This document shows positions 14,026-53,582 of a stretch of 64,000 bases of DNA, piece after piece. The DNA lies in NCBI GenBank assembly GCA_963841435.1, contig CAWJCS010000005.1, positions 1,312,001 to 1,376,000 of the forward strand, in the 5' to 3' direction. This DNA comes from an uncultured delta proteobacterium. Its GTDB lineage: Bacteria > Myxococcota_A > Polyangia > Polyangiales > Polyangiaceae. How positions within the stretch are numbered: the first letter of the stretch is position 1; each line of letters begins with the position of its first letter. Below the pieces are notes generated by a model, which was given only the letters and a program-made list of their open reading frames with translations, was not told the DNA's origin and did no database searches. The position numbers and the translations under genes are program-made.

Positions 14026-14934
14026 CTATTGCAAAAAATATGCGCGCTGCAGGTGCGCGCCCGCTTCGCCGAGCTCCTCCACGAGGCTCTGGGTGAATTC
14101 CATGGGGCTTTCGCGTTCCACCTGGTCAACGTCAGCGTACTCGAGGCGGGAGGCGAGCTTGCCGAAGGCACGCTCCACGTTCTTGCCGCGTGACCCGTGC
14201 ATTTCGGCCAAGCGCTTCGAGAAGTCGGCCGCCACGAACGCCGCGTAGCGTACGGAGCGCGGAAAATGCTGATCGAAGAGCAAGAAATCGAGCACGTGCC
14301 GGCGGTCAACGCGCTGCGGGTGAAGCTTCTTGTACGCCTCCATCGAGCACAGGCAGCGCAATAGTGCGAGCCAGTGCACGTTCTCTGCGCTCTGCCTGGA
14401 GGCACGGGGCGCCGATTCCGCGCGCTCCCGGATGAGGCGGTTGGCCCCGTCGAACCGTTCGACGAACTTGCCGAGCTTGAGGAACAGCCACCCCTCGTCG
14501 CGGGCCGTGGTGCCGTCGGCGACGCCGTCCCAGAGAAAGCTCGCGGTCACGATGCCACCGAGAGCCTGGGAGAGCTGGCTCTCGTGGACGCCGCGCGCGT
14601 GAGCCTCGTGCAGAGACCAGTAGGCCTGGTTGAGGTGCTCCCACATTTCGGTGCTGATGACCTCGCGCACCTGCCGCGCGTTCTCGCGCGCGCGAGAGAT
14701 CACGCACACGAGCGAGGTCGCGGCCGTCTGGTCGAAGAGTAGGGCCTCGGTGGGGGCGTCAGGCAAGGAAAGTGCCGCAAGCGCGCCTTGCCACTGGTTC
14801 TTCGCCGCGAGCGGATCGACCTGCTCGAGGTCCACGAGGATGGCCCGTGTCACCTCGAGCACCCGCGCGACGTGCTCGGCGCGCTCGAGGTAGCGACCCA
14901 TCCAAAAGAGGCTGTCCGCGACCCGGCTCAGCAT
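14026..14934 (-). CDS. Alpha-E domain protein
   Basis: [41 protein letters not shown]. Confidence 0.92.
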
Positions 14935-16400: not shown

Positions 16401-16637
16401 GTCCCTATCTAACCCCCGGCATGGATTCTGTTGTGTTTCGGCGGCGTCACGGTCCTCGGAAGATCGCTGTGGCACACCGCAGCGCAATGGGGAAGTGCGG
16501 GGGAATGGCACCGTACGGGTGTTCAGATCCCCGGCTCGCGGCTGGCACCCTCGCGGGCGCTACTCGATGGCGCGCGCCGCTCCAGCGGCGAGGGAAAGTG
16601 GCCGAGCGAGCTACTTTTCTGCGCCAGCGCAGCGTTT

Positions 16638-32155: not shown

Positions 32156-32296
32156 TCGCCCGCTCTTAACACGAACCGGTGCTCTCGCGCGCCCCCGTGC
32201 CGGGCCCGTGCCCGGAGCACGCCGCCACGCCGCCAACACGGCACCGTCACTTTCCCCGCTTCGCTCGGCAGTTACGCCGGATCGGCGGGGGGGGTG

Positions 32297-34007
32297 CTAG
32301 GGCGTCACACGGAAACCGTACAGGCGAAGCTTCGTGGGCGGCGGGATCGTGGATCGGGGCATGTCGCGGTTCGAGGGCAACGTTTCCCAACGGAGCATGT
32401 ACAGGATGGTCGGATCGGGGCTCGCGCCGTCGTCCTTGCGAAAGCGCACCTCCATCTCGGCCGTGCTCGACTCCACTCTCGCAAGCTCGGAAGGGTACGG
32501 CACCGGCTGTGGGATCGTCGCCTCGGCGGCGAGCGTCGTCGGATTCAAGCGAAACGCGCCGAGCCCACCGTACTGCGAGTGGTAAAAGTTCTGCGTGAGC
32601 GTGCCGCCGGGCTGCACTTCGACCGGCTCCACCTCGATTTCGAACACGAGCGTGCCGCCACCACCGAAGTCCCAGCGGTAATCCCACTGCGACGTCTGAT
32701 GAACGACCCAGCTGCCGTTCTCGAAGCGCGCGTTGTAAAGCTGCGTCTTCCCGTTCTGATCGTACTTGTGATACGCGATGATCGGTCGGTTCTGCGTGTC
32801 GAAGCCGACCTTCGTGTTGTTGTTGATCATGCCGCCGCCGGCCGGCACGGGGTCGACGACCTCGCTCGTGCCGAGCGTGATGGGCAACGTCAGCGCCTGG
32901 CCGCTCGCCTTCGTCCAGCTCAGGAGATCGGCGCTGCGCGCGTACGAGAGGTCGTGGTTCGTGGCGGCGTCGGGCGTGTCTCGCCACACCCACACGAGGT
33001 GAAAGAGGTCGTCGGGTCCCTTGATGGGGCCGACGGGGTAGGCGTTGCGCTGCCCCTCGCCGTCGGTGAGCGGTGTGCCGAGCAGGCGTGACCAGGTTTT
33101 CGTGCCCGTCGAGTACTCGTTGAAGATGTGGTTACCGTTGCCGCTCGAGCCGTCACGGTAGATGAACACGAGCTTGCCGCCGGGACCCCGGAAGAACTGC
33201 GGGTACGTGCAGCTCTGCTCGTTTTGCCCCGTCATCGAGAGCTGCTGGAAGGTGTCGATGTCGAGCGGCGCCGAGGTGCGGAAGTAAATGAGAGGCGAGC
33301 TGTGCATGTTGCCCGCCACGTGGATGTAGCCGTCGTCGTCGATGGCCATCACGATGTCGTTGTGGCTGTCCCAGCCGACCGAGGTCGGCAGCCGCACGAG
33401 CTTCCAGGTGGACGATCCGAGCGTCCGATCGGCAACCGTGAGCGCACGGTTCGCATCGTAGAACGCCGCGAACTGGCGATCCTGCCGCGTGATGAGGAAG
33501 AAGCCGACGGGATGCCCGGACCAGAACGTCGGTGATGTCGAGAGCTTCGGCGATCACCGAAGGCGTGCCGCCGCCACCACCCGCACCTGCGCCCGCATCA
33601 CCGCCCGCTCCCGCACCGGCGGAACCGCTCGCGCCGCCGCTCGCTCCGGAAGCGCCCGCACCCGCGCTGCCCGCCTGGCCGGCACCGGCCGCCTCGGTGC
33701 CGGCATCGCCGCCGGAACCTGCGACCTCGCCCGCGCTGCCACCCGCGCCCGCACCCGCCGCCGGTGCTCCGGCGCTGCCACCTTCACCGCCACCACTCAC
33801 CCCGGCAGCGGGACCAGCCCCCGCTCCAGCGCTGCCGCCAACGTCTGCGCCGCCCTGGGCTCCCGCAAGCCCCGCGGAGCCCGCCGTGCTCGAGCCGCCC
33901 ATCCCGGATTGGCCCGACGAAGCGGACTCGGACGACTCGCAAGCAAGCAGGGTGCACGCGAGCAAAGTGACCGACAGGCGCCACCGCGGGCCACTAATGC
34001 TGCACAT
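32297..34007 (-). CDS. Lipoprotein with Gly-rich linker and BNR_4-type beta-propeller (lyase-like), one extra base near 33525
   Basis: Lipobox LLAC; after removing one base: DVWSGHPVGF, GWDSHN, IHVAGNMH, TYPQFF, YRDGSSGNG, NAY, TNHDLSYARS. Confidence 0.8.
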
Positions 34008-34083
34008 GCCTCGGCTCAAGGTATCCGATGCCTTCTCACACTGCCAGCGAGGGCCACGATGTGCATGGTATCTTCATGACTCG

Positions 34084-35682
34084 TTGCGCAAGCGTCCGGC
34101 GCCAATCACGACTCGTACAGCGTCGATTATCTCGACGCTGCTATTTTGCTTTGCTTGCGGCAACGGGGGCGGCGAGCCGAGCGGCGTCGCGGGCAGCGCG
34201 GGCACGGTGGGCGGCGCCGCCGGGTCCGGTGGGTCCGGCGTGTCGGGAACGGCGGGCGCTCAGGCGGGCGCCGGTGGAGCAGCGGGCTCGAGCGGTGGCG
34301 TCAGCGGAGGATCGAGCAGCGGCGGCACAGCGGGCACGGCGGCCGGCGGCGATGGCGGCGGACCGGCGGGTGGCGCCGCGGGAGCAATTGGCATGGCGGG
34401 TAGCACGGCAGCGGGCACGGGCGGCGCGGCGGGCACGGGCGGTCAAGCGGGCGCCGCAGGCAACGCCGGAGCCGCCGGCAGCAGTGGCGCAAGTGGCGCA
34501 AGTGGCGCGAGCGGCGCGGCGGGCAGCTCGGGTGCCGGCGCTGGAGGCGCCGGGGGCGTACACGCAGCGGACGCAGCGTTCTGTCTCGCAGAGCTCGACC
34601 GCGCCGCCGACCAGTACGCCGGCTTTCGCACGGCGTACACCGATGCGACCCAAGTGCCACGCTCCGCAAAGAACGGCAGCGTGCGTCGCGTCGCCACGAG
34701 CGACTGGACGAGCGGCTTCCCCGCCGGCAGCTTCTGGCTGCTCTACGAGCACACCGAAGACACGGCGTTCCGCACCGCAGCACAGACTTTCACGGAGGCG
34801 CTCCGGGGAGAGCGCACGCGCACCGACAGCCATGACGTAGGCTTCATGATCAACGACAGCTTCGGCAACGGCTACCGCCTCACGGGCGACGCCGGCTACG
34901 CGAGCGTCGTGCGCGACGCCGCGGCTTCGCTCGCGACGCGCTTCAATGCCACCGTGGGGGCCACGCGCTCGTGGGATTTCGGCAGCTGGAGCTTCCCCGT
35001 GATCATCGACAACATGATGAATCTGGAGCTCCTGTTCCACGCGACGGAGCTCGGCGGCGACGCGAGCTTTCGGCAGATGGCCATCACGCACGCGCTCACC
35101 ACTCGGAAGAACCACTTCCGCGCCGACATGAGCTCCTATCACGTCGTCGACTACGACCCGAGCACGGGCGCGGTCATCAAGAAGCAGACCAACCAGGGCG
35201 TGGCCGACGAGTCCGCGTGGGCTCGCGGCCAGGCGTGGGGCCTCTACGGTTTCACGATGTGCTTTCGCGAGACGGACGACCAGAGCTTCCTCGATCAGGC
35301 CATCGGCATTGCGGACTTTTACACTCAGAGCCCCGCGATGCCGTCCGACGGCGTGCCCTACTTCGACTTCGACACCGCCGACGACGACACGATTCCCGAC
35401 TACCGGGACGCTTCGGCCGGCGCCATCGCGGCGAGCGCGCTCTTCGAGCTCGCCGGCTACGCACCCGCCGAGGCGTCCGAGCGCTACCTCGCGTTCGCCG
35501 TCAAGGCCATCCGCTCCCTCTCGTCAGCGAGCTACCGGGCGGCGCTGGGTCAAAACTCCCATTTTTTGCTGATGCACAGCGTCGGCAACTACCCACAGAA
35601 CGACGAGATCAACGTCGCCATCAACTACGCCGACTACTACTACCTCGAAGCCCTGCTTCGTTGCTCCAAGCTCGGCGGTTGA
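34084..35682 (+). CDS. GH88 unsaturated glucuronyl hydrolase lipoprotein with Gly-rich linker
   Basis: DWTSGF, HDVGF, VIIDNMMNLELL, SAWARGQAWGLYGF, DASAGAI, YADYYYLEAL; TTG start inferred before the CFAC lipobox. Confidence 0.9.
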   Translation: MRKRPAPITTRTASIISTLLFCFACGNGGGEPSGVAGSAGTVGGAAGSGGSGVSGTAGAQAGAGGAAGSSGGVSGGSSSGGTAGTAAGGDGGGPAGGAAGAIGMAGSTAAGTGGAAGTGGQAGAAGNAGAAGSSGASGASGASGAAGSSGAGAGGAGGVHAADAAFCLAELDRAADQYAGFRTAYTDATQVPRSAKNGSVRRVATSDWTSGFPAGSFWLLYEHTEDTAFRTAAQTFTEALRGERTRTDSHDVGFMINDSFGNGYRLTGDAGYASVVRDAAASLATRFNATVGATRSWDFGSWSFPVIIDNMMNLELLFHATELGGDASFRQMAITHALTTRKNHFRADMSSYHVVDYDPSTGAVIKKQTNQGVADESAWARGQAWGLYGFTMCFRETDDQSFLDQAIGIADFYTQSPAMPSDGVPYFDFDTADDDTIPDYRDASAGAIAASALFELAGYAPAEASERYLAFAVKAIRSLSSASYRAALGQNSHFLLMHSVGNYPQNDEINVAINYADYYYLEALLRCSKLGG

Positions 35683-36361: not shown

Positions 36362-38971
36362 TTGAGCGCCAGCGCCGCGCCGCAGCGGGAGCGGGTGCTC
36401 CTCGTCGACGACGAGCCTCAGGTGCTGGTCGCGCTCGAGGATCTGTTGTCGGACGAGTTCGTCGTCATGACTTGCGGCTCGGGGGAGCGCGCCCTCGAGA
36501 TCCTGGAAACGGACGGCAACGTCGCCGTCGTCGTCAGCGACCAGCGCATGCCTCGCATGCCGGGCGACGCGCTACTCGCGGAGGTGGGACGGCGCACGAC
36601 GGCGTCCCGCATCCTCGTCACCGGCTTCGCCGATCTCACCGCCGTGATCCGGGCCGTGAACAGCGGCCACCTGTTCGCCTACATCGCCAAGCCCTGGGAG
36701 CCGAAGGACCTGAAGCTCAAGGTCCAGCTCGCCGCACACCATTTCCGGCTGAGCCAGGAGCTCGCCCACGAGCGGCGACTCTTGAACGACCTTCTCACGA
36801 GCACCCCTGACGCCATCTTCTTCAAGGACGCCGAGCTACGCTTTCTGCGAGCCAATCGGGCGTTCGCCGAGCTCCTCGACTCCGCGCCCGAAAAGCTCGT
36901 CGGCAGGCGCCTGGAAGATCTCGCCCCCGACCCCGCCGAGGCGGCGCGCGTCGCGGCCGAGGAACGGCGCATCGTCGCAACGGGCGAGCCCCTGCTCGAC
37001 GTCGTGCGCAGGCACGAGCGGCAGGGCGTCACACGCTACCTTTCGGAGAGCAAGGCCCCGATTCGAGAAGCGGACGGCCGCGTCGTCGGCATCGTGGGGA
37101 TTGCCCGCGACGTGACCCAGCGTGTCGCTCAAGAGGCGAGCATCGCCCGGCTCACTCGCGTGCGAGGCATCCTGAGCGGTGTCAACGCCGCCATCCTGCG
37201 CGCCTCCGACGGCACCGCGCTACTCCGCGAATGCTGTCGCGTCGCAATCGAGCACGGCGAGCTCTCGCTCGCCGGAGTCAGCGTGGTGGACCCGAGCGGG
37301 CAGCTCGAGGCCCTGGCGATGGAGCCGGCTGGCGTGCGTGTTCCCACGCGGGTGCGCAGGTTCCTCCTGAACGGCGCGGTTCATCCCACGCTCGCCGGCG
37401 TGATCGACCGGGGGCAGCCCGTGGTGCTCGACGCGGTCCCTGACGCGCCCTTGGAGCCGGGCTCCGAGCCGCCGCCTCGGCGCCGCGAGATTCGTTCGCT
37501 CGCGCTCGTCCCCATCGCGCGGCCCGGCGAGCATCCCGTACTGCTCTGGCTCTGTTCGCCCAAGCCCGATCAATTCGACGCCGAGGAGCTGATGCTGCTC
37601 GGCGAAACGGCCGACAACGTGTCGTTCGCGCTTGCGAGCATGGGCCGCAGCAGGCGCCTCGACTTCCTCGCGTATTTCGACGAGACGACACGCCTGCCGA
37701 ACCGTCAGCTCCTGTTCGATCGCACGGGGCAACAGCTCGGAGCGGCGAGCCTCGACGCGCCGCTCGCACTCGTGGTGGTCAACGTCGCTCGCATGCGCCA
37801 GGTCAACGAGTCGTTCGGCCGGCGAGGCGGCGACGACCTCTTGCTGCAGATCGCCCAGCGCATCGAGCCCCTCGTGGGCAAGAAGGGCACGGCTGCTCGC
37901 CTCGACGGCAACGTGTTCGCGCTACTCGTGCCGGCCGTGGACGCCGAGGCGGCGGCGGCGTCGTTCGCCGAGCACGAAGTTCTCGCGGCGTTTCGACAGC
38001 CCTTCGTGGTAAACGACGCCGAGGTGCGCGTTGCCGTGCGCCTCGGCATCGCCCTCGCGCCCGGCGACGGTGACAGTGCCGAGCTCCTGGTCTCCAACGC
38101 CGAGGCCGCGCTCAAGAAGGCGAAGGCGACCGGGCAGCCCTACCTCTTTTACTCGCCGGACATGAACGCACGCGTCGCCGAGCAGCTCGCGCTCGAAACG
38201 AAGCTTCGCCGCGCGGTCGACCACGGGGAGTTCCTGCTTCACTACCAGCCGAAGACCGACCTCACGACGGGGGAGCTCGTGGGTCTGGAAGCGCTCATCC
38301 GCTGGCAGGAGCCCGGCGGGGCGCTCGTCCCTCCCGGCCGCTTCATCCCGGTGCTCGAGGAGACCGGGCTCATCCGGGAGGTCGGCCGCTGGGTCCTCGA
38401 GCGGGCCGCGCTGCAGTACCACGAGTGGTCGCGCGCCGGGCGCTCGCCGCCGCGTATCGCGGTCAACGTCTCCGCGCTCCAGCTCGCCGCGCGCGACTTC
38501 GCGGGAAACGTGGAGCGCGTGTTGCGCCACTATCCGGACGGTAGCGGCATCGACCTCGAGATCACCGAAAGCGTGTTCCTCGACGACCTGGCGGGCAGCA
38601 TAAAGAAGCTCGAGGGGGCGCGGCGCCAAGGGCTGCGCGTCGCGATCGACGACTTCGGAACGGGTTACTCCTGCCTTTCCTATCTGGGGCGCCTGCCCAT
38701 CGACACCATCAAGATCGATCGCTCGTTCGTGGTGCGCCTGAGCACGGATCCGCAGGCGACCTCGATCGTCGATACCATCATCTCGCTGGCGCACGCGTTC
38801 GGGCTCGAGGTCGTTGCCGAAGGTGTCGAGACCGCGGAGCAGGCGCAACTCCTCCGCAAGCTCGGCTGCGACCAGGCGCAGGGCTACCTGTTTGCACGGC
38901 CCGAGCCTGCCGCGGCGACCGAAAAGCGACTCGGCTCGCGCTTCGATCTCGACGCCCTGCTTCGGAACTGA
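36362..38971 (+). CDS. REC-PAS-GAF-GGDEF(degenerate)-EAL protein, probable c-di-GMP phosphodiesterase
   Basis: REC (LVDDEP, SDQRMP, KPW); PAS (AIFFKD, RDVT); GGDEF site reads RLDGNVF; EAL intact ([40 protein letters not shown]). Confidence 0.93.
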
Positions 38972-39037
38972 GTACCTCACCCGACGAGCGCAGCGACGCT
39001 GTCGCGCGACTCGAAATATCCGTGAGGAGTTAGAAAT

Positions 39038-39079
39038 AGGAGTCTGGACACTGGTCCGGACTCCTGGCCATTTGGCCAG
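39038..39079. promoter_or_regulatory. Two adjoining inverted repeats in the intergenic region (operator or terminator candidates)
   Basis: AGGAGTCTGGAC-actg-GTCCGGACTCCT (12-bp stem, one non-Watson-Crick pair) and CTGGCCA-tt-TGGCCAG. Confidence 0.5.
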
Positions 39080-39252
39080 TTCACCGTCCCGTCACACAAC
39101 GTCACAGGCCTGGGTCGTCCTGACCCAGCCACCTTTGCACTTACTTTATCCCACAGTGTGCCGTCTTTTGATCTGACAGCCCGCCACCGGGTACCCTCCG
39201 GCCAAAATCACCTCAGCTCGTTCACCGTCCGCTCCCCCCATCGTGCCCTCGA

Positions 39253-41334
39253 ATGGCCGCCTCAGACCGCCGCTTCACTTACCGACTGGACCTCCTCGAG
39301 GATCAGGTCCGCGTTTCGTCGCCGAGCTCGACGCGCATCGTCGTTGCAGATCTGAGCGCCAGCGGAAGCGGGCTCATCGTCAACCCCGACGATCTCGACA
39401 GGGTGACCGCGGAGCCCGCCACTTTCGACATCGGCGGCGGGCAGTCGTTCGTGGTGCGGCTCGCCCCCGTGCGCGTCTCCCAGCTCGACCGGCAACTTCG
39501 GGTCGGTGCGAGATTCCAGGATCTGCCTCTGTCTGGCATGCGAGTCCTGTCGGAATTCTTGATACGCGAGTTTCTGGAAGAGACCCGAGCGCTCGGCCGA
39601 CTACTGGAGGACCCGCGCACCATCACGACCACGAGCCCCGTCTCCATTCGTCGGCACCTCAAGCGTTGCCTCGTCGTCGAGCGCCGTCCGCTCCGCGTGT
39701 ACGACCACGGGACGGTGCTGCCCCTCACCGTGCGCGTCGAGCGTATCGTGGATCTGGGGGGGCGACCGATGCTCGAGGTCGTGATCGGCGCACCGGGTCT
39801 CGAGATCGGCCGGGAGTACACGTTCGCCGTCGCTCGCCCTGGCGCCGTAACGCACTTCCGTGCTCGCCCAGAGCTCCGTTCCGAGAACACGTTCCTCGTC
39901 CCACTTCCCGATCAGCTCTGCCATGGAGGGTTCCGCGACTCGGTCCGAACGTCCTTGGACGGCGGCGGTGACGCGTTCGTGCGCTTTGAGCATCCGCGCT
40001 TGCCCGGGGTGCCCATCGGGCGCCCTCTTTTGGATCTTTCGGCCCGAGGCTTCGCTTTCGCCTCGGACCCCGAGAGCGACCTGCTGTTCCCTGGCGACCG
40101 GCTAGCTCGCGTCGAGCTGTTCTTGGGCGGAGAAACCTATCAGGTCATCGGGGCCATCCGCAGCATCGCGCCGCACCGGCGCTCGGACGTGTACACGTGC
40201 GGTGTCGAGGTGCTCGAGTTCGCCGACGTCGGTCAGGAAGTCCGCTTCCAGACCGCGGTCTTCCAGCGCACTCATCCGCGAGCCGTGATGGCGGAACCGC
40301 CGCAAGCCGCTGGCATGGCCTGGGACGTGCTGCAAGCCTCCGGCTATGTGGAGCTCTGGACCCGCGCCGGAGCGCGGCAGCGACTACAAGGCGAGTACGC
40401 GAGAAGCTGGACCGGCGCGACGCAAACCACCGGGCGACTGATGCTGGTGGAGAGCGGAGGCAAGGCCGTGGGGACCGTCGCCGCGAGCCTGCTCTACCCT
40501 AAAACTTGGCTCGTGCACCAGCTCGGTGTCGACCGGCGCGAAAGCACGGGACCCGCCCAGGTCTTGAGCCTCGCGCACGAGCTGTACTCGGGCGTGCTCT
40601 ACCTCTTCCAGAACCAGCAAGAGGCGGACTACTTCGCGATCTTCGCGGAGCGCGACCGCCGCTGGAGCCAGACCCTCTACGATGGCTTCGTCGCCGAGTA
40701 CCCGGACCGTAGCGCGTTCGCCTACGACCAGAATCGCGTTTTTCGCTGTGACGTGACGACGCCCGTCAGCCGGCAGCTGGGAGCCGAGCCAGGAATCACG
40801 GTCGTACGTGCCGACGCCGCTCGCCTGTTGCTCGCTTCGGAAGCCCTGCGGGCGTCTTCGTCGCCCCTTCTCTGCGATGCCATGGCCTACGGCGCCGGCG
40901 AGATCGGGCTCGAGGACTTCGCCCGCACGTGCCGTGAGCTCGGCTGTGAGCGAGAACGACACGTCTACGTCGCGCTCGAAAACGACACGCCGATAGCTGC
41001 GCTGATCGCCGAGAGCGGAGGTGAAGGGGTGAACATCTTCGGACTGATGAACCACTGCACGATCGCGAGCCTTGGCACGGGTCCCGTCAGCGCGAACGCG
41101 AAGAGGGCGCTCCTGCGCGAAGCGATGGACCACTTCTTGCGACAGAACCGGCACCAGTTCCTCTTCTTCGACGAGACCGACGCCGACGTCCCTGCCGTCG
41201 AGCTACTCGGGTTCGAATACGTGTCGGAAGGCATGCGCTTCATCGCAAGCAAGCGGGTAGTGCCTGCATGGCTGAGCTATCTGGAAGCCGCCTTCACGGT
41301 CCGCGCCGCGTCGCAGGTTGGCCGTGATGGCTGA
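39253..41334 (+). CDS. Double-PilZ protein with C-terminal putative GNAT-like acyltransferase region
   Basis: PilZ1 RRFTYR + DLSASG; PilZ2 RDSVR + DLSARG; C-terminal alpha/beta region (VGTVAA, TWLVHQLGV, LGFEY) resembles GNAT folds. Confidence 0.75.
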   Translation: MAASDRRFTYRLDLLEDQVRVSSPSSTRIVVADLSASGSGLIVNPDDLDRVTAEPATFDIGGGQSFVVRLAPVRVSQLDRQLRVGARFQDLPLSGMRVLSEFLIREFLEETRALGRLLEDPRTITTTSPVSIRRHLKRCLVVERRPLRVYDHGTVLPLTVRVERIVDLGGRPMLEVVIGAPGLEIGREYTFAVARPGAVTHFRARPELRSENTFLVPLPDQLCHGGFRDSVRTSLDGGGDAFVRFEHPRLPGVPIGRPLLDLSARGFAFASDPESDLLFPGDRLARVELFLGGETYQVIGAIRSIAPHRRSDVYTCGVEVLEFADVGQEVRFQTAVFQRTHPRAVMAEPPQAAGMAWDVLQASGYVELWTRAGARQRLQGEYARSWTGATQTTGRLMLVESGGKAVGTVAASLLYPKTWLVHQLGVDRRESTGPAQVLSLAHELYSGVLYLFQNQQEADYFAIFAERDRRWSQTLYDGFVAEYPDRSAFAYDQNRVFRCDVTTPVSRQLGAEPGITVVRADAARLLLASEALRASSSPLLCDAMAYGAGEIGLEDFARTCRELGCERERHVYVALENDTPIAALIAESGGEGVNIFGLMNHCTIASLGTGPVSANAKRALLREAMDHFLRQNRHQFLFFDETDADVPAVELLGFEYVSEGMRFIASKRVVPAWLSYLEAAFTVRAASQVGRDG

Positions 41335-43630
41335 GCGGGCGGAGTGGCCGGATCTCGCTCCGCTCCTCGAAGGCCTCGACGACAACAGCGCGGAATTCGA
41401 GCCGCTCCGTTTTTTCTGCGACCAAGCAGCGGACGCGGAAGCACTGAAACGGCTGCTACTGGGCAAGGGGCGGCCGCTTTTTCGTCGCGACGACCTCGAG
41501 AGCCAGGTCCGCGAGCTTGTCCGCTCCCGTACACCGACCCTCACGGACGCCTCCAAGCTGGACGCGGCGGCGCGGGAGTTCATGCTCGAGCGCGGTGAGG
41601 CACGTTACGGCGTGTGGGTCTACTACCCATGGCGCCGTCTGCTCGTGCGTGTCCTGCCGCCGGAGGAGTTCGCGGAGCTTCGAACGACGCGCAACCGCTT
41701 CAAGATCACTCGAGAAGAGCAGGCGCGTCTCGCCGAATGCACGCTGGGCCTGGTGGGGCTCTCTGCGGGTCACGCCATCGCGACGGGCCTGGCGCTCGAG
41801 CGGATAGGCACGCGCATTCGACTCGCGGACTTCGACTCCATGGAGCTTTCCAACACCAATCGCGTCGCGTGCGGCATCAGCGTGCTCGGGATGAACAAGA
41901 CGCTGGTGGCGGCGCGACAGCTCTATGAAATCGACCCGTTCCTCTCCTTGTCGGTATTTCCCGAGGGGATCACCGACGACAACCTCGTAACGTTCCTCGA
42001 GGGCGGCGGTAAGGTCGATCTTCTGATCGAAGAGTGCGACGATCTGGAGCAGAAGGTCCGGCTCCGCGAGGCGGCGCGCGCCCGGCGGATCCCGGTGCTC
42101 ATGGAGACCAACGACCGAGGGCTTTTGGACGTGGAGCGCTTCGACTTGGAGCCGTCGCGCCCCGTGTTTCACGGGTTGCTCGGAGGCACGCGGGCAGCTG
42201 AGCTGAAAGGCCTGGGCGTGGCGGAAAAGATCACCCACTCGCTACGCATCGTGGGCAGCGAGGTCTCGCCACGCCTCGGGGCGTCGCTCGTCGAGATCGG
42301 ACGGACGATCGCGGCTTGGCCGCAGCTGGGATCAGGGAACATGCTCGGCGGCGCCGTCACGACGCACGCGGCCCGCCGGATTCTACTGGGCCAACCGCTT
42401 TCATCGGGGCGCTACCGAGTGGACCTCGACGAGCTCCTGGATGGATCCGGCCGCGTCGAGCTCGGACGCGAAGTGGGCCAACCGCCAGAACCTGCGGGCA
42501 CCGAAGCGCAACCCTCTGTGCCCGATCCACCGCCGCCTGCGGCGCGCGGGGCACCGCCGTCGCGCGCCGAGATCGAGTGGCTGGTGAGCCACGCGGCGCT
42601 CGCGCCGTCCGGCGGCAACCAGCAGCCGTGGCGCTTCGTCTGGCGCAAGGACGCGCGACTCGACGGCTACCTCGACCGCACCCGCGCCGGAGACCTGCTC
42701 GACTATGCGTGCTCGGCCAGCTACCTCGCGCTGGGAGCCGCCGCGGAGAACGCCAGCATCGCCGCCAGTGTCCTCGGGCGTGACGCGAGCGTCAACCTCT
42801 TTCCAGACGCTTCCGAACCCGACCTGGTGTTTCGTCTGAAGCTCGGGCAAGCCTCCGGCACCGTGACGCCTAGTCCGCTCCACGCTTGCCTTGCGATGCG
42901 CACCACCAACCGCCGCCCCGGCGACGGTCGATCGCTCTCCGCGGACCACACGCGGCGCCTCGAGCAGGCCGCACGCGCACGCGATGCCGAGGTTTCGTTG
43001 GTATGCGACGCGCCCACCCTGTCACGGCTCGGCGGATTGCTCGGCGCCGTCGATCGGTTTCGCCTCCTCAACGAGGGCCTGTACGAGGCCATGATGGCAG
43101 AGCTGCGCTGGGATCTCGACTCTGTGCTCACGACACGCGACGGCATCGACGTGGCGACCCTGGAGCTCGATGCGCTCGGGCTCGCCGCATTGCGACTCCT
43201 GACCGACGCGCGCACCGCGCGGTTCCTTCACTTTCTAGATCTCGGTTCCGGGCTCGAACGGCCGACACAGCGCCTCGTCGAGTCGGCGGCCGCCGTGGGG
43301 CTCGTCACCGTGAACGGGGTCGGCCCGCGCGCCTACGCGCAGGCCGGTCGGGCCTTCGAGCACGTCTGGCTGGTCGCGACCGAGCTAGGTCTCGGCGTGC
43401 AACCGATGACGGTCGCTCCCTACCTGTTCGCCAGGCTCACGCGAGGCGAGGGGGAAGGGCTTTCCCCTCGTGATGTCGAGCACCTCTGGACCCTCGAGCG
43501 GCGCTTCCGCGAGTTCTTTCCGACGCCGGATGGACGCGCCGAAGCGATGTTGTTTAGGATCGCGCACGCGCCTGCCCCACGAGCACGCGCCTTGCGGCGC
43601 CCCCTCGACGACATCCTGAGCGAGAGCTGA
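41327..43630 (+). CDS. Rv1355c/MoeY family ThiF-adenylyltransferase + nitroreductase fusion (OxzB-like)
   Basis: WVYYPW, LRTTRNRFKIT, GLVGLSAG, ADFDSMELSNTNR, EECDD, DVERFDLEP, WPQL; nitroreductase APSGGNQQPW, RTTNR. Confidence 0.92.
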   Translation: MAERAEWPDLAPLLEGLDDNSAEFEPLRFFCDQAADAEALKRLLLGKGRPLFRRDDLESQVRELVRSRTPTLTDASKLDAAAREFMLERGEARYGVWVYYPWRRLLVRVLPPEEFAELRTTRNRFKITREEQARLAECTLGLVGLSAGHAIATGLALERIGTRIRLADFDSMELSNTNRVACGISVLGMNKTLVAARQLYEIDPFLSLSVFPEGITDDNLVTFLEGGGKVDLLIEECDDLEQKVRLREAARARRIPVLMETNDRGLLDVERFDLEPSRPVFHGLLGGTRAAELKGLGVAEKITHSLRIVGSEVSPRLGASLVEIGRTIAAWPQLGSGNMLGGAVTTHAARRILLGQPLSSGRYRVDLDELLDGSGRVELGREVGQPPEPAGTEAQPSVPDPPPPAARGAPPSRAEIEWLVSHAALAPSGGNQQPWRFVWRKDARLDGYLDRTRAGDLLDYACSASYLALGAAAENASIAASVLGRDASVNLFPDASEPDLVFRLKLGQASGTVTPSPLHACLAMRTTNRRPGDGRSLSADHTRRLEQAARARDAEVSLVCDAPTLSRLGGLLGAVDRFRLLNEGLYEAMMAELRWDLDSVLTTRDGIDVATLELDALGLAALRLLTDARTARFLHFLDLGSGLERPTQRLVESAAAVGLVTVNGVGPRAYAQAGRAFEHVWLVATELGLGVQPMTVAPYLFARLTRGEGEGLSPRDVEHLWTLERRFREFFPTPDGRAEAMLFRIAHAPAPRARALRRPLDDILSES

Positions 43631-43635
43631 AACCG

Positions 43636-46279
43636 ATGGAGCTCATCGGGAGCCTACTCATCGTTTACGCAGGCGTGCTCTCGATCAACGTCGGGCTTTC
43701 CGCACTGCTGTGGGCGCGCGATCGCACGCCTCTCAATCGGAGCCTGCTGATCCTGTGGGCTTCCGAGGTGCTCGCGTTTCTCGCCCAAGGCGTGGCGCAA
43801 GGCAACACGCTCGCAATCGTCTACGGGTTTTCAGCAACCTTCGTAGGCACCCTCGCGGCGGCATTTCTCTTGGCGCGCCTCGCCGGGCTCACCGTGCCGT
43901 GGCGCGCCCACACCGCATTCTTCGCGTTGAGCTGCTTGGCGAGCGCGGGCGCATACGCGTTGGGTGGGTCGTTCTGGATGGTCGCGCTGCCGGTGTGCGT
44001 GGCCGTCGCCATGCCGCAGCTCCACGCCGCGCTCCGGGCACTTCAGACGAAAGTGCTGACCACGACCGGACGTGCACTGGCCGTGACGTGCCTGGCACTT
44101 TCCGCCCACAACGTGGACTTCGCCTTCCTCAGGAATCGCCCCGAGTTCGCGGTTTTCGGCTTCATCATCGCCATTCTTCTGGCCTTTGCCCTCAGCACCA
44201 CGGCGCCAGCCGTCGTGCTGGAGCGCGTGGCCGCGGAGCGTGCCCGGGTGGAGGAGCTCGAGCGCTTCAAGTCCAAGTTTTTCGCCAACATCACGCACGA
44301 GCTTAAGACACCGCTCACGATGGTTCTCGCCCCGATCGAGCTTCTGCTCGACGGCGAGATCGGAGTGATCACGCCGCAGCAGCGCAGCACGCTGCTCGCC
44401 ATGTCGCGCAGCGGCGTCAAGCTCCTCAAGCTGATCGGGGACCTCCTCGATCTATCGAAGCTCGAGGAATCGCGTTTGCGTCTGCGCGTGGAGGAGCACG
44501 ACCTCGTCGTCTACCTGCGTGGGCTGCTCGAACAGACCACACCGCTCGCAGAGCGCAAGCGCCTCGGGCTGACCTTCGTTGCAAACTGCGAGGAAGCGCG
44601 CGTGTTCTGCGATCTCGATCGACTGGAGCGCGTGTTCGTCAACCTGCTTTCGAATGCGTTCAAGTTCACGCCCATGGGTGGATCCGTGATCGTGCGCGTC
44701 CGCGACGATGGCAACGCCATCGTGGCCGATGTGCACGACACCGGTCGCGGCTTTGCCCCGCGGCTGTCCGAACGCTTGTTCGAGCGATTCTACCAGGTCG
44801 ACGACGACACCCACAGTCGAGGAGGTGCCGGTATCGGGCTCGCGCTCGCCCGCGAACTCGTCGAGCTGCACGGGGGCAGGATCTGGGCCGACAGCGTGCC
44901 CGGAGAAGGGGCCACGTTCCACGTTAGGCTGCTAAAAGGCCGGGAGCATTTCGACCAGGCGGTGCTCGATCGACGCGAGCGCCGGACCGACCAGCAACGC
45001 GGCCAGCGCGAGAGCGATGTGGGGCTCTCCGGCTGGGATGTCGGATTCGAGGACCGGCATCGTTTCATCGACCTCGACCATGCCACCGAGAAGCGTGTCG
45101 TCCAGCGCGACCTCGACGAGCACCGGCGCGCCCACACGGTGCTCGTCGTCGAGGACACCCCTGACGTCGTGCGCGTGATCCACCTTGCCCTGCACCAGCA
45201 CTTCCGGATCTACAGCGCTCCCGATGGCGCCAAGGGCTTCGATCTCGCCGTCGAGCGCCGACCCACGCTCATCATCACCGATCTCGGCATGCCCATCGTC
45301 AACGGTCTCGAGCTGACGCGCAAGCTGCGCGCGGACCCGAGGACGCGCCACACGCCGATCGTCATGCTGACGGCGCGCACCGACCTCGACGACCGGGTCC
45401 TCGGCCTCGACACGGGGGTCAACGCGTACCTCACCAAGCCCTTCGCCCCGCGGGAGCTGCTCTCGACGGTCCGTTCGCTCTTGAGCACTCAGGAGCACAC
45501 GGCAGAGCTTCTGCTCAGTCAGCAAACCACGTCGCTCGAATCGATCGCCGGTGGCTTGGCTCACGAGATCAAGAACCCGCTCAATTACATCAAGAACGCC
45601 GTCGCAAGCATCCAGCGCGACGTCCAGGGCTCCGTGGAAAAGCTCAAGGCAGGAAAGCCGCTGTCCGACGCCGAGCAGGCCGAGCTCGGCAAGGTCGCCG
45701 GTCGGCTCGGTCGCATGGCGGACACGGCGCAGTCCGGCGTGAAGCGCATCACCGGCACGGTTGACCTCATGCTGCGCTATGCGCGCGAGGGCTACACGCG
45801 CGTGCACCAGCCGTACGACGTGTACGCCGCCATCAGCGACGTGCTCGGCGTCGTCGTCCCGGCGACGGGGTCGCGCGCACGGATCGAAACCACGCTCCAG
45901 GACGACGGCACGATCGAGTGCGTGCCTGACGAGCTGAATCAGATCGCGACCAACCTGATCCAGAACGCACTCGAGGCGGTACCCGCCGAGAACGGCGTCG
46001 TCGCGATCGGGGGGCGCGTTCAACGGCGGCGACCTCGTGCTCACGTTCCGCGACAATGGAGTCGGCATGTCGCCCGAGGTGCAGAGCCAGATCTTCACGG
46101 CGTTTTTCACCACCAAGGACGTCGGCCGCGGCCTCGGCATGGGCCTCACCATCACGCGGCGCTGCGTCGTAGCGCTCGGCGGAGCGATCAGCGTGCAGAG
46201 CCAGCTCGGCGAGGGGACCGAGTTCACCGTGCGTTTGCCCCGCAAACCGCGGCTCGGCGTGCCCGCGCCGGCCCCCTGA
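43636..46279 (+). CDS. Multi-TM hybrid sensor kinase (TM-HisKA-HATPase-REC-HisKA-HATPase), one extra G at 46009-46014
   Basis: About 6-7 TM helices; THELKTPL, NLLSNAFKFT, DTGRG, GAGIGL; REC ITDLGMP; AHEIKNPL, NLIQNA; after the shift DNGVGM, FFTTK, GLGMGL. Confidence 0.9.
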
Positions 46280-46364
46280 CACGCCTCGCGGGTGCTGCCC
46301 CGGCGCGGGGCAGGTGCTCGAGTAGCGTCGATTTTTGGCGCTCATCGCGTAGAATGGTTGAGCT

Positions 46365-47450
46365 GTGGGCCTTCTGTCCGATGGCGACCCGCATTCGGTG
46401 GGCTCGTCAACCGATTTTGCGAGCGGTGAACGCGCACCAGGGCTCCGCCCTGTTCCGCGCAACCGCGCCACTTCGCAGCGCGCCCTGGGGCCTTTTGCGA
46501 CGACGCTGCTCGTGGGTTCGATCGCCACGGCGGCCTGCTCTTTGATCACGCCGCTCGACTTCACGGGCGGCCTGGGGGGGACGAGCGGCAGCGCGGGCAC
46601 TGGCGCGACCGAAGGCGGCGCCCTGGGCGAGGGCGGCGAAGGCGAGGGCGCAACCGGCGGTGGCGGTACGCCCGCGCTCGGCGGCAACGGGGGGGCGACC
46701 GCGGGGGGGCGTGGCGGCGGTGCCGGAGAGGCCGGGCGCGGTGGTGACGGCGCGACGGGCGGCGACGGCGGTTCGAGCGCGACGGGCGGCAGCAGCGGCG
46801 ACGGCGGCAACGGGGGCACGAGCGGCGACGGCGGCTCGTCCGGTGCCGGCAATGGGGGCACGAGCGGCGACGGCGGCTCGTCCGGTGCCGGCAATGGGGG
46901 TGTGGCGGGCGGTGGCAATGCCGGCATGTCCGGCGGCGGCAACGCGGGCAGCTCGGGCGCCGGCGACGGTGGCACCGCTGGCGCCCCCCCCACCTCGTGC
47001 TCGATGGTCGACGCGAACGCCAAGGCGTTTGGAGGTCACTGCTACCTGCTCGTGACCACACCCACGACCTGGCCGCAGGCACGCACGGCGTGCCCGGCCC
47101 GCTATGCAGGGGGTCACCTCGTGACGATCACGTCCGAGTCAGAGCAAATGTTCGTCTGGCAGACGGTCGTGCTCGGCGGCACCGAACCTTGGCTCGGATG
47201 CACCGACGGCCTCACGGACATGCAAGCCGGGGACGGCTCCATCTTCGAGTGGATCACGGGTGAGGACATCCAGCAATATCACGGCTGGGCGGGCGGCGAG
47301 CCGAACAACTTCATGAAGACCTGCCCGTCGGGCACGGGCACCTGCTACGAGCACTGCGGCTTTTTGCAGTCTTTGACGCAAGGCTACTGGAACGACGAAG
47401 TCTGCAGCGCGAACAAAGCGTCTATTTGCGAGTGGGACACCGGCGGCTAG
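46365..47450 (+). CDS. Lipoprotein with Gly-rich linker and C-type lectin domain; start uncertain
   Basis: TAAC lipobox; FGGHCY, WPQARTAC, GHLVTITSESEQ, WLG, GEPNN, WND, ICE. Confidence 0.85.
   Translation: MGLLSDGDPHSVGSSTDFASGERAPGLRPVPRNRATSQRALGPFATTLLVGSIATAACSLITPLDFTGGLGGTSGSAGTGATEGGALGEGGEGEGATGGGGTPALGGNGGATAGGRGGGAGEAGRGGDGATGGDGGSSATGGSSGDGGNGGTSGDGGSSGAGNGGTSGDGGSSGAGNGGVAGGGNAGMSGGGNAGSSGAGDGGTAGAPPTSCSMVDANAKAFGGHCYLLVTTPTTWPQARTACPARYAGGHLVTITSESEQMFVWQTVVLGGTEPWLGCTDGLTDMQAGDGSIFEWITGEDIQQYHGWAGGEPNNFMKTCPSGTGTCYEHCGFLQSLTQGYWNDEVCSANKASICEWDTGG
46812..46895. repeat. 42-bp perfect tandem duplication encoding GGTSGDGGSSGAGN twice
   Basis: Identical units at 46812-46853 and 46854-46895. 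Confidence 0.85.
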
Positions 47451-47677: not shown

Positions 47678-47815
47678 ATGTTCCTCTGAACAAATACTCA
47701 TCCCGATTTCCCTTGGCGCAAGCGGCCGAATGCGGCAAGAGCAGTGACGACTCATCTGGGAGGGGCTGGGTGGTCGAGGATGAGTGTTCGTTTACAAGCC
47801 ACAAAAGGAAACACA

Positions 47816-49138
47816 ATGTCTTCGCGACCCACACACACCGCCAAGCTGGGGCAGCTGGCGGTCGCAGCCGTCGTCCTCGCGGGCTGCGGCGCAAGCCCCG
47901 GCGAGCCTTTCGATTCCGCCGAAGAGCCCCTGACGCTCACCAACGAGACGAAGCTCTTCATTCCCAAGCCGAACCCCGATGCCGTCAAGCAGATCGCCAG
48001 GTTGAAGGCACGCCACCGTAGGGTCGAGGCCGCCCGCATCAATCACATGATCGAAACGCCGCAGGCGGTGTGGCTAACCAACGGCTCGCGTGGGGACGTG
48101 GTCGCTCAAACGCGAGAGGTCGTCAGGCTTGCCGACGACAAGGGCCGGGTGCCCGTGCTCGTGGCCTACAACATCCCGTTCCGCGATTGCTCGCAGTTCT
48201 CCGCCGGCGGCGCCACCACCAAGGAAGAATACCATGCGTGGGTTGACGGCATTGCCGACGGCATCGGGCGTAAGGACGCCATCGTGATTCTCGAGCCGGA
48301 CAGCCTCGGCATCATTCCCTGGTACAACCCGCTCGCCGATCGCGACGACTGGCTGCCCGATCCCAACGTGCTCGAGTGGTGCCAACCCACCGATGCCGAT
48401 CCTGCGACCGCGGCTCAGGACCGCTTCGACATGCTCAAGGACGCGGTCGAGACGCTGAAGAGCCTCCCCAACACGAAGGTTTACCTCGACGGCACGCACA
48501 CCGCATGGCTCGCCGCGGGTGACGCGGCCGATCGTCTGCTCCAGGCCGGCGTGACGGAGGCCGACGGCTTCTTCCTGAATGCCTCGAACTATCAGGACGA
48601 CCCGCGTCTCGAGAAGTACGGCGCGTGGGTTGCCAAGTGCATCTGGTTCGCAGATCCGACCTCCGGCTCCTGGGGCGCTGGCCACGCCGAGTGGTGCAAC
48701 AGCCAGTACTACCCGGCAACGTTCGACGACCTGTCGACGTGGGCTCTCACCGACCAGTGGTACACCGACAACGTCGAGAGCCAGACGTGGGTGCCGTATC
48801 CGGGCGACGAAGGCATCAGCCACTTCGTCATCGATACGAGCCGCAACGGCGTCGGGCCTTGGCAGGCGACGCCCGAGCAGCTCGCGCTCGGTGACGTTCA
48901 GGATTGGTGCAACCCGCCGGGCCGTGGCCTCGGCAAGCGCCCCACCACCAACACGGGCAACCCGCTCATCGACGCGTACCTGTGGATCAAGCTGCCGGGC
49001 GAGTCCGACGGGCAGTGCAACCGCTGGGACCCCGTCGGTTCGCCGGATCCGGTGCGCAACACGATGGACCCGGCTGCGGGCGCCTGGTTCCCCCAGATGG
49101 CGCTCGAGCTGACGGCCAACGCCAATCCGCCGTTCTGA
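47816..49138 (+). CDS. Glycoside hydrolase family 6 cellulase, lipoprotein
   Basis: AAAAGGA RBS, LAGC lipobox, YNIPFRDC, ILEPDSL, YLDGTH, NASNY, VIDTSRNG, WCNPPGRGLG, WIKLPGESDG, AGAWF. Confidence 0.93.
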   Translation: MSSRPTHTAKLGQLAVAAVVLAGCGASPGEPFDSAEEPLTLTNETKLFIPKPNPDAVKQIARLKARHRRVEAARINHMIETPQAVWLTNGSRGDVVAQTREVVRLADDKGRVPVLVAYNIPFRDCSQFSAGGATTKEEYHAWVDGIADGIGRKDAIVILEPDSLGIIPWYNPLADRDDWLPDPNVLEWCQPTDADPATAAQDRFDMLKDAVETLKSLPNTKVYLDGTHTAWLAAGDAADRLLQAGVTEADGFFLNASNYQDDPRLEKYGAWVAKCIWFADPTSGSWGAGHAEWCNSQYYPATFDDLSTWALTDQWYTDNVESQTWVPYPGDEGISHFVIDTSRNGVGPWQATPEQLALGDVQDWCNPPGRGLGKRPTTNTGNPLIDAYLWIKLPGESDGQCNRWDPVGSPDPVRNTMDPAAGAWFPQMALELTANANPPF

Positions 49139-53204: not shown

Positions 53205-53480
53205 CATTAGCTCGATCGTGAGCGCCTCTCGCTCCTGGTAGAGCTCGGGGAACGAGAACTTCGCCTTCGACGCCTCGAGCGTCACGAGCGACTGCGCGAG
53301 CGCACCGGTGCGAAGCTCGGCGCGTGCTTTCTCGAGCAGGCGCACCTCTTCTTCGAGCTCGCTTTGGCGCACGCGTGCCGGAGCATCCCAAACGGGGAAC
53401 GCGGCGACCGAGCTTTCCGGGCGCGAGGGAGCGGGCGCCCTCTGCTCGGCGGGGCTCCTAGCGCCGCGAATCTTGGGATC
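53205..53480 (-). pseudogene. Internal remnant of a myxobacterial anti-sigma-like/TPR protein
   Basis: SSVAAFP...ELEEEVRLLEKARAELRTG...FPELYQEREALTIEL with no N-terminal domains or normal C-terminus. Confidence 0.5.
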
Positions 53481-53582
53481 CTTGGCGCCTTGCCGCCGGG
53501 CCCGGCACGGTCGGTGGCCCGGTCCGCCAGGCGCACGAAATGCAATCTTCGAGAAAACCGGTTAAGTTGCGCGCCGCACCCC

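Follow-up and report, generated by a model that had tools for sequence, protein, structure and literature searches.

Gene order and domain composition of the locus

The locus described here lies in a window of 64,000 nucleotides from an uncultured myxobacterium of the Polyangiaceae (contig CAWJCS010000005.1, positions 1,312,001 to 1,376,000 of the forward strand; positions below are those of the window). Four co-oriented genes are located on the plus strand: a gene for a predicted cyclic di-GMP (c-di-GMP) phosphodiesterase with an EAL domain (gene 1, 36362-38971), a gene for a PilZ protein with a C-terminal tandem-GNAT domain (gene 2, PilZ-GNAT, 39253-41334), a ThiF-nitroreductase gene (gene 3, 41318/41327-43630) and a gene for a transmembrane (TM) hybrid histidine kinase (gene 4, 43636 onward). 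The ATG of gene 3 (41327) precedes the stop codon of gene 2 (41332-41334), resulting in an 8-bp overlap, and a gap of 5 bp separates the stop of gene 3 (43630) from the ATG of gene 4 (43636). This layout had been read in the first-pass annotation of the stretch and is borne out by the coordinates of the open reading frames (ORFs). Between gene 1 and the trio of genes 2 to 4 lie 281 bp, in which no site was found by a sigma-70 promoter scan, the model of which does not cover myxobacterial promoter types. The following features were identified:

36362..38971, plus strand: predicted c-di-GMP phosphodiesterase with REC-PAS-GAF-GGDEF(degenerate)-EAL architecture (gene 1; Pfam, NCBIfam, motifs from the translation)
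39253..39585, plus strand: PilZ domain 1 of gene 2, residues 1-111 (Pfam, motif alignment, AlphaFold2 model, Foldseek)
39622..39927, plus strand: middle beta-barrel of gene 2, residues 124-225, YcgR-N/PilZN-like (AlphaFold2 model, Foldseek)
39928..40272, plus strand: PilZ domain 2 of gene 2, residues 226-340 (Pfam, motif alignments)
40285..41334, plus strand: tandem-GNAT acyltransferase domain of gene 2, residues 345-693, proposed N-acyl amino acid synthase (AlphaFold2 model, Foldseek, VIA-align)
41327..43630, plus strand: predicted ThiF-like cyclase and flavin mononucleotide (FMN) nitroreductase-type oxidase, translationally coupled to gene 2 (gene 3; NCBIfam, Pfam)
43636..44250, plus strand: compact hydrophobic multi-TM sensor domain of gene 4, residues 1-205 (homologue comparison)
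44251..46279, plus strand: HisKA-HATPase-REC-HisKA-HATPase core of gene 4 (histidine kinase-receiver-histidine kinase, HK-REC-HK), interrupted by a frame change (Pfam, NCBIfam)
46313..46337, plus strand: terminator-like hairpin with T-run, 34 nt past the read-through stop at 46279 (consensus match only)

Three terminator-like sites were observed, compared to 4.7 expected in shuffled sequences.

Gene 3 is, by sequence, a member of the Rv1355c/TrzS family, a characterised type of oxazolone synthetase, and this activity is predicted for it here. Its score against the NCBIfam equivalog model NF005901 ("Rv1355c family") is 731.6 bits at a cut-off of 476, the match extends over positions 7-718 of the 722 in the model, and the result was reproduced in the genome search. 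The ThiF-nitroreductase identity proposed in the first pass is confirmed by this score. According to Pfam, ThiF (residues 129-261) and Nitroreductase (from residue 413) are combined in one polypeptide. In the Protein Data Bank (PDB) its nearest sequence relatives were the Acg nitroreductase and TcdA; the latter is ThiF-like and itself produces an oxazolone ring, on tRNA. In 16 homologues 77 residues are invariant, including the nucleotide loop G144/S146/G148, D168/D170, N176/N178/R179, E236-C237-D238 and P427/N431/Q433/W435. Several arginines of the oxidase domain are invariant as well (all residue numbers are those of gene 3). In TrzS, mutagenesis identified the catalytic Asp217 of the adenylation motif and Arg540 and Gln651 of the oxidase (PMC12856293; here and below, cited papers are drawn on as far as their available text goes).

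The N-terminal half of gene 2 contains two PilZ domains. The whole protein scores 26 bits against the Pfam PilZ model (cut-off 22.5), with matches at residues 6-103 (E 0.006) and 258-337. As the first-pass annotation had claimed, both domains keep the RxxxR and DxSxxG motifs of PilZ proteins. In domain 1 these are an N-terminal RRxxxR (R6, R7, R11) and DxSxxG (D33, S35, G38), and in domain 2 RxxxR (R228, R232) and DxSxxG (D261, S263, G266). The motif residues of domain 1 are at least 90% conserved in an alignment of 39 sequences. For domain 2, R228, R232, D261 and G266 were invariant and S263 nearly invariant among 27 sequences, and R228, R232 and G266 remained invariant among 39. Most of the PilZ motif residues stay invariant or at least 90% conserved when relatives down to 23% identity are included.

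An AlphaFold2 model of residues 1-346 (pLDDT 89.1) consists of three beta-barrel modules, the middle one being formed by a helix followed by strands 147-225. In a Foldseek search with this model the two-domain, c-di-GMP-bound receptors MrkH, PP4397, YcgR and MotI were matched at 4e-10 to 1e-8 (4e-10 to 3e-6 once VCA0042 is included) and the PilZ domain of Alg44 at 7e-4; searched by sequence with the profile of the family, the PDB returned only marginal matches to the Alg44 PilZ domain. Because the modelled three-barrel structure matches YcgR-type c-di-GMP receptors, the N-terminal half is assigned as a PilZ domain followed by a YcgR-like PilZN-PilZ pair. By its motifs and its modelled fold gene 2 is a PilZ receptor, and c-di-GMP binding is predicted.

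The C-terminal half of gene 2 was modelled separately (residues 340-693; pLDDT 88.9, pTM 0.89). Secondary structure and structural matches over model residues 1-336 reveal two consecutive GNAT lobes. Foldseek returned VipF, the tandem GNAT CBG (clavulanate), a glucosamine N-acetyltransferase, a histidine acyltransferase and a glycine N-acyltransferase at 1e-12 to 1e-8. The top match in VIA-align was histidine N-acetyltransferase (9emd_A; Z 16.1, root mean square deviation 4.2, 275 residues). Tandem GNATs reached Z 13-16, and FeeM (2g0b) reached Z 10.8, level with many generic single-domain GNATs. The Pfam match to Acetyltransf_1 is weak and sub-threshold (E 0.007). The family defined by gene 2 comprises 33 clusters in a word-indexed search, including the window's own protein, and 583 representatives at E<=1e-3 (97 at E<=1e-30) in an exhaustive search. 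Most of its members are ~690 amino acids (aa) long with this architecture, and some consist of the C-terminal domain alone. The genome of the window contains a single PilZ-GNAT copy. Below the family's own clusters, an Atlas search listed FeeM/PilZ fusion clusters at 0.81-0.83, which is under the trust level and serves as a lead only.

Gene 4 was correctly recognised in the first pass as a multi-TM hybrid kinase, with a hydrophobic N-terminus followed by HisKA-HATPase-REC-HisKA-HATPase (Pfam). Residues H221, D549 and H643 are invariant in 14 orthologues. The 205-residue TM domain matches no Pfam family, and the only match of gene 4 to the NCBIfam LuxN model concerns the generic HATPase part. 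In homologues the TM domain is followed by HK-REC-HK, SpoIIE/PP2C or a PF00211 cyclase. Because it is joined to kinase, PP2C or cyclase outputs, the domain has the hallmark of a portable input module. Its sequence shows 39% identity (1e-38) to the TM domain of a TM-SpoIIE protein encoded ~1.6 kb from the ThiF-nitroreductase gene of locus L060, which has no PilZ-GNAT neighbour. Such TM-SpoIIE/PP2C proteins occur near ThiF-nitroreductase genes at L060:5813-7240 (plus strand) and L061:5866-7323 (plus strand), the identity having been measured for L060. A complex prediction that paired the full-length PilZ-GNAT protein with residues 495-790 of the kinase scored 0.00, which counts neither for nor against binding.

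As the sequence stands, the frame opening at 43636 continues to 46545, and its last ~170 residues form an out-of-frame tail rich in Arg and Pro. A second frame (45959-46279) encodes a clean HATPase C-terminus. The frame change amounts to one base in a run of six G (46010-46015) and splits the second HATPase domain. Aligned with the orthologue encoded on metagenome contig L067, the window matches in frame +1 as far as VVAIGGR and then, from GAFNGGDLV until the stop at 46279, in frame +2; intact orthologues have 881-901 aa. The frame change may be either an assembly error or a real lesion. The end of the locus at 46279, which the first-pass annotation had assumed, is valid if the frame change is read through and not for the sequence as it stands. 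A search of sequencing runs retrieved one soil-metagenome run containing 0.09 of the sampled words and no RNA run, too little for a check of the G run or of expression.

Gene 1 matches EAL at 9.8e-74 (Pfam) and a DibA-like model at 2.4e-119 (NCBIfam). As read from its translation, it has a degenerate GGDEF motif (..LDGNVF..), an EGVE motif and the receiver Asp. We regard gene 1 as a neighbour and possible phospho-acceptor of the kinase that lies outside the conserved core.

Neighbourhood of PilZ-GNAT genes in Myxococcota and metagenomes

The genomic context of the trio was surveyed in 401 Myxococcota genomes, including the window's own. Around 25 PilZ-GNAT genes other than that of the window, loci of ~20 kb each were analysed; stop-to-stop ORFs were scored by BLAST and hidden Markov models, and Pfam was run on the neighbours. 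A pattern scan of the genome contigs for related loci yielded 3 loci. The PilZ-GNAT profile was found in 26 of the 401 genomes at E<=1e-10 (64 at E<=1e-3), and a TrzS-family protein, scoring above the cut-off of the Rv1355c model, in 22. Both genes are present in 16 genomes, and in 14 of these they share a contig and are at most 6 kb apart; in the remaining two genomes (G212, G274) both genes are situated at contig ends.

An HK-REC-type partner is encoded at most two genes downstream in 18 of the 25 PilZ-GNAT loci. One of these partners is cut by the contig end after its 7TM region, and in another HD_5 replaces the second kinase; two further loci could not be judged for the kinase owing to contig ends. 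A ThiF-nitroreductase gene lies at most three genes away in 13 loci, 11 of which show the order PilZ-GNAT, kinase, ThiF-nitroreductase, while in the other two it is directly adjacent to PilZ-GNAT and a kinase is missing. The order found in the window is repeated on metagenome contigs L067 and L077. The L067 proteins are 51%, 51% and 70% identical to the three proteins of the window. On L068, L070 and L071 PilZ-GNAT is followed by ThiF-nitroreductase and then by the contig end. The arrangement is far from chance, because the order of the trio recurs on L067 and L077 and the gene pairs are linked across Myxococcota; these linkage counts exclude a chance adjacency. Co-conservation of the trio, for which the first-pass annotation had proposed a synteny survey, is thus supported both by the two-gene genomes and by these contigs.

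ThiF-nitroreductase genes also occur in other settings, and six genomes have a TrzS-family gene and no PilZ-GNAT match. At locus L063, which contains a TrzS-family protein and no PilZ-GNAT match, a FeeM-type synthase (PF21926, 9e-14) and a kinase adjoin the ThiF-nitroreductase. Genome G392 carries the PilZ-GNAT/kinase/ThiF-nitroreductase set and, at L066, a second ThiF-nitroreductase copy with a FeeM-like gene; this canonical pair (L066:8296-12318, plus strand) is followed by an LPG_synthase_TM membrane protein. Loci L060, L061 and L062 have no PilZ-GNAT match and encode a short kinase directly upstream of ThiF-nitroreductase, with an unannotated gene of ~400 aa further upstream in L060 and L062. 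The 410-aa protein of L060 was considered as a GNAT relative and rejected, being unrelated to the GNAT family profile. In the window's own genome no FeeM (PF21926) or Acetyltransf_5 (PF13444) match was found; this is stated as not found rather than absent because the genome is 95% complete. The only acyltransferase-fold protein adjoining gene 3 is the PilZ-GNAT fusion.

A quick maximum-likelihood tree was calculated from 39 GNAT-domain rows, excluding rows with fewer than 200 matched model positions (L003, L046, L054, L057, L075, L078, L085-L087) and two L001 duplicates. The ThiF-linked loci fall into two separately supported clades (98 and 96). The first comprises 15 rows, of which 11 are ThiF-linked, and the second contains the window, L067/L068 and L070/L071/L077 together with the three closest radical-SAM loci. 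Since the ThiF link appears in two clades and radical-SAM loci stand beside the window's, the tree indicates that the tailoring enzyme is exchanged between closely related acyltransferases. A swappable tailoring enzyme fits a common acylated intermediate that is modified in different ways.

Several other features of these loci were noted. The PilZ-GNAT-adjacent sensor of L035 (125-3370, minus strand) has the architecture HisKA-HATPase-REC-HD_5 (HD-GYP-type) and a likely c-di-GMP phosphodiesterase output. REC-HATPase or REC-HisKA-HATPase proteins of ~380-480 aa, one or two per locus, recur at PilZ-GNAT loci, either upstream of PilZ-GNAT (L037, L038, L040-L045, L048, L050, L054) or downstream of the kinase (L001, L002, L034, L036, L053, L055). 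The window has no such protein and carries the REC-...-EAL protein in the matching upstream position. In a Chloroflexia metagenome-assembled genome (MAG) the PilZ-GNAT gene (L003:7902-10762) is spread over three frames, and the B12 radical-SAM gene L034:7361-8994 is split over two; both cases are probably assembly indels, as the frame change in the G run of gene 4 may be.

Proposed pathway, known relatives and rival explanations

We consider it reasonably probable that the trio is an operon-like module for c-di-GMP-gated synthesis of an N-acyl amino acid and its conversion to an oxazolone, coupled to a dedicated kinase. In this pathway the PilZ/tandem-GNAT protein would act as c-di-GMP receptor and, presumably activated by its ligand, would N-acylate an amino acid, probably an aromatic one, from acyl-CoA. 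The ThiF domain of the TrzS/OxzB-type enzyme would adenylate and cyclise the N-acyl amino acid, and the FMN oxidase domain would desaturate the cyclised product to an N-acyl oxazolone. The HK-REC-HK kinase would serve as the module's dedicated signalling partner. Its sensor domain might detect the product or an intermediate, creating a feedback or autoinducer loop; alternatively, the kinase might set the conditions for the pathway, for instance if it phosphorylated the EAL phosphodiesterase next to it on the REC domain and so altered the c-di-GMP level. The acylation step and the c-di-GMP gate are proposed because the fold, the motifs, the gene coupling and the finding of no other acyltransferase partner point to them. 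The cyclisation and oxidation chemistry is known from characterised relatives of gene 3 and would apply here by analogy. The kinase may plausibly be the product receptor, as the first pass had proposed. Further support for a coupled kinase is provided by L063, where a kinase is located next door to a canonical FeeM-type/ThiF-nitroreductase pair.

The closest characterised systems are the two-gene N-acyl oxazolone pathways TrzA/TrzS (Rv1356c/Rv1355c) of mycobacteria and OxzA/OxzB of Pseudoalteromonas rubra, to whose family gene 3 belongs. OxzB (preprint 10.1101/2020.06.11.147165), TyzB/C (PMC10404671) and TrzS (PMC12856293) take as substrates the N-acyl aromatic amino acids that an adjacent acyltransferase makes, and members of the Rv1355c family were shown to make tryptazolones (PMC12856293). 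As in oxzAB and trzAS, the gene with an acyltransferase fold in the window lies immediately upstream on the same strand. c-di-GMP turnover genes are nearby, as in trzAS, where the authors raised a signalling role (PMC12856293). What the first-pass annotation had stated of OxzAB, TyzACB and the c-di-GMP genes beside Rv1355c agrees with the available text of these papers. Unlike the single FeeM/AHL-synthase-like domain (AHL, N-acyl homoserine lactone) of OxzA and TrzA, gene 2 is a tandem GNAT with three N-terminal PilZ-type barrels. Also unlike trzAS and oxzAB, the module of the window includes a conserved HK-REC-HK kinase and its host is a myxobacterium. The available text of the oxazolone papers (PMC10404671 aside), searched by term, contains no mention of PilZ, histidine kinases or words beginning with Myxococc.

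A second point of reference is PixB of Myxococcus xanthus (MXAN_2604), a PilZ-PilZ-GNAT protein that binds c-di-GMP, needs its acetyltransferase domain and affects Frz-dependent reversals through it (PMC8316039). As compared by description, gene 2 shares the layout of two PilZ domains and GNAT and adds the PilZN-like barrel and a second GNAT lobe. The PilZ domains of PixB lack the Ser of DxSxxG (PMC8316039), unlike those of gene 2, both of which retain it. The pixB gene probably forms an operon together with the next two genes downstream of it (PMC8316039); in the supplement of this paper no text naming the pixB neighbours was found. By locus tag MXAN_2606 lies two genes downstream of MXAN_2604. 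It encodes an orphan hybrid HK-RR-HK (RR, response regulator), and its insertion mutants act as developmental cheaters (bioRxiv 10.64898/2026.08.28.747804). Gene 4 has the architecture of MXAN_2606, whose position is that of the kinase in radical-SAM/methyltransferase loci. In the available literature neither a small-molecule product nor a ThiF-nitroreductase link has been proposed for PixB.

PilZ-fused acyltransferases have a further precedent. Nas354 and Nas343, reported in 2016, are metagenomic N-acyl amino acid synthases (NAS) of the FeeM type (NAS type I) joined to PilZ, and Thies et al. 2016 proposed c-di-GMP control of PilZ-NAS activity (PMC4897644). Both they and gene 2 join PilZ to an acyltransferase, the Nas proteins being FeeM-type with a single PilZ domain; the available text of PMC4897644 describes no ThiF-nitroreductase or kinase partner for them. 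The first-pass annotation had also held that no circuit of this form was described in myxobacteria. Indeed, our literature search found no paper joining a PilZ/tandem-GNAT enzyme, a ThiF-nitroreductase and a kinase, but that statement overlooks PixB and MXAN_2606.

With tandem-GNAT amino-acid acyltransferases gene 2 shares the two-lobed fold, at the Z score given above for 9emd and at Z 10.7 for 7pk0. The histidine N-acetyltransferase (9emd/9emp) and the glycine N-acyltransferase (7pk0) use acyl-CoA to acylate free amino acids at the alpha-amino group, and one tandem-GNAT structure entry holds N-myristoyl-histidine. Identity to gene 2 is 8-14%, PilZ modules are missing from these enzymes, and their substrates are not transferable. 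In LuxM/LuxN-type AHL circuits, the product of an acyl-transferring GNAT-superfamily synthase, a small acylated derivative of an amino acid, is detected by a multi-TM hybrid histidine kinase. The window is likened to these in working principle only, as the sensor domains share no homology.

Several observations weigh against the proposed module. The first-pass annotation had expected the C-terminal half of gene 2 to be an acyltransferase of OxzA/TyzA/FeeM/GNAT type; the tandem-GNAT fold stands, and a sequence relationship to OxzA, TyzA or FeeM does not. No match to Pfam FeeM (PF21926) or Acetyltransf_5 (PF13444) was obtained up to E 10, and hhalign of the family profile with the myxobacterial FeeM-type protein of L063 gave a probability of 0.3%. 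Among the top structural neighbours, amino-acid acyltransferases stand beside acetyltransferases for sugars, proteins and aminoglycosides; the modelled fold marks gene 2 as a probable acyltransferase and does not set the acceptor. We know of no member of the PilZ/tandem-GNAT family with enzymology. No kinase is present at 5 of the 25 PilZ-GNAT loci, and ThiF-nitroreductase is missing from 12. A B12 radical-SAM gene lies between acyltransferase and kinase in 2 of the 25 and in the MAG loci L001 and L002, and methyltransferase loci comprise another 2 of the 25 and L080. Since 12 of 25 loci have no ThiF-nitroreductase and some have a radical-SAM or methyltransferase gene, an oxazolone is not the general product of the PilZ-GNAT family. 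The sensors of partner kinases elsewhere (~260 unannotated residues with GAF, HisKA_7TM with GAF, or MASE8-like) are unlike that of the window, whose kinase may be inactive if the frame change is real. Finally, the EAL gene, which the first pass had counted as part of the system, is not conserved beside the trio of the closest relative: the 8 kb upstream of the L067 trio contain no EAL-protein match.

The same enzymes could also operate with a reversed flow, which we regard as possible, if clearly less probable. The kinase would then be an upstream sensor of the envelope or environment that sets local c-di-GMP, and hence the PilZ gate, by a phosphorelay, the recipient being the REC-EAL phosphodiesterase here and the REC-HATPase proteins in relatives. 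The cell would not sense back the oxazolone or acyl amino acid, which would be an output such as a membrane lipid, antibiotic or stress metabolite. A phosphorylatable REC-EAL phosphodiesterase directly upstream of the trio agrees with this, and so does L087, where genes for a PilZ protein, a kinase and a GGDEF-EAL protein follow one another. The HD_5 terminus of the L035 partner, in place of a second kinase, points to sensors acting on c-di-GMP, and loci with the same tailoring enzyme differ in their sensor regions. Bacteria exposed to oxazolones showed no phenotype in the available text of the preprint 10.1101/2020.06.11.147165. However, the absence of a conserved EAL gene beside the L067 trio speaks against this flow, and the TM domain of the window also adjoins ThiF-nitroreductase genes with no PilZ protein nearby, an association that links the sensor with the pathway and not with c-di-GMP. 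Reversed flow and product sensing are not mutually exclusive.

Other rivals concern the chemistry. Gene 2 could be a c-di-GMP-regulated protein acetyltransferase, a reading offered for PixB, that modifies the adjacent kinase or other signalling proteins, with the ThiF-nitroreductase, radical-SAM and methyltransferase neighbours acting on something else. The HK-REC-type kinase is the most constant neighbour of PilZ-GNAT (18 of 25), some loci have no tailoring enzyme, Eis and VipF are among the structural neighbours, and the effect of PixB on reversals runs through its acetyltransferase domain (PMC8316039). Yet the best structural match is an amino-acid N-acyltransferase, and the TrzS-family enzyme usually has no other acyltransferase partner, 16 of the 22 genomes carrying PilZ-GNAT. 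Tailoring enzymes lie between or directly after both genes (13 ThiF-nitroreductase, 2 radical-SAM and 2 methyltransferase of 25), and because small-molecule enzymes are wedged into these operons we judge protein acetylation to be improbable. It is very improbable that gene 3 acts on a peptide or other carboxylate to form a different heterocycle, like the E1-like/FMN-dehydrogenase pairs of azole-forming pathways for ribosomally synthesised and post-translationally modified peptides. No product is known for any myxobacterial member of its family, which would leave room for such a role, but gene 3 scores far above the Rv1355c equivalog cut-off and belongs to a family of tryptazolone makers (PMC12856293). 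Pfam scans of the sampled neighbours, which included no systematic short-ORF search, detected no precursor-peptide or YcaO-like gene.

Flanking genes and implications for oxazolone and PixB biology

Other genes of the window surround the module. Just after the kinase gene, an ORF at 46365-47450 (plus strand) encodes a long low-complexity region rich in Gly, Ala and Ser followed by a C-type lectin domain (Pfam 3.2e-11); its local GC content is 0.744, and in relatives it has no relation to the module. On either side of the module lie glycoside hydrolases, at 33532-35682, 47744-49138 and 53364-55718 (GH88-like, GH6 with 1.4e-63, and GH3). Further upstream are a GlgE maltosyltransferase (30200-32239, minus strand) and an isoamylase-type enzyme (21904-24021, minus strand). 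A transglutaminase/DUF2126 amidoligase, a circularly permuted ATP-grasp protein with Alpha-E and a second circularly permuted ATP-grasp protein are encoded at 37-2925, 3439-5976 and 14928-16511, a gene association that is known and poorly understood.

For oxazolone lipids (OxzAB 2020/21, TyzACB 2023, TrzAS 2025) the biosynthesis is known, and function and receptor are not. The c-di-GMP effector PixB has clear phenotypes in motility and development, and its substrate is yet to be found. PilZ-fused acyltransferases are widespread, and the locus described here joins them with both the oxazolone and the PixB question. It points to N-acyl amino acids as the products of the PilZ/tandem-GNAT family and to a possible control of myxobacterial oxazolone synthesis by c-di-GMP, with a non-homologous protein taking the place of OxzA/TrzA. 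The locus further offers a candidate sensor in the small TM domain, which recurs with kinase, PP2C and cyclase outputs. What oxazolones do and what PixB-type proteins act on thereby become testable by expression, liquid chromatography-mass spectrometry and phosphorylation assays. A wider proposal, which we hold to be doubtful at present, is that the locus represents a new type of lipid-signal circuit, composed of a c-di-GMP-licensed synthase, an oxazolone (in sister loci a radical-SAM or methyltransferase product) and a kinase receptor, with PixB and MXAN_2606 as its genetically characterised representative. If this were true, oxazolones and related products would serve Myxococcota as signals of an autoinducer-like kind, and the substrate of PixB would be a free amino acid.

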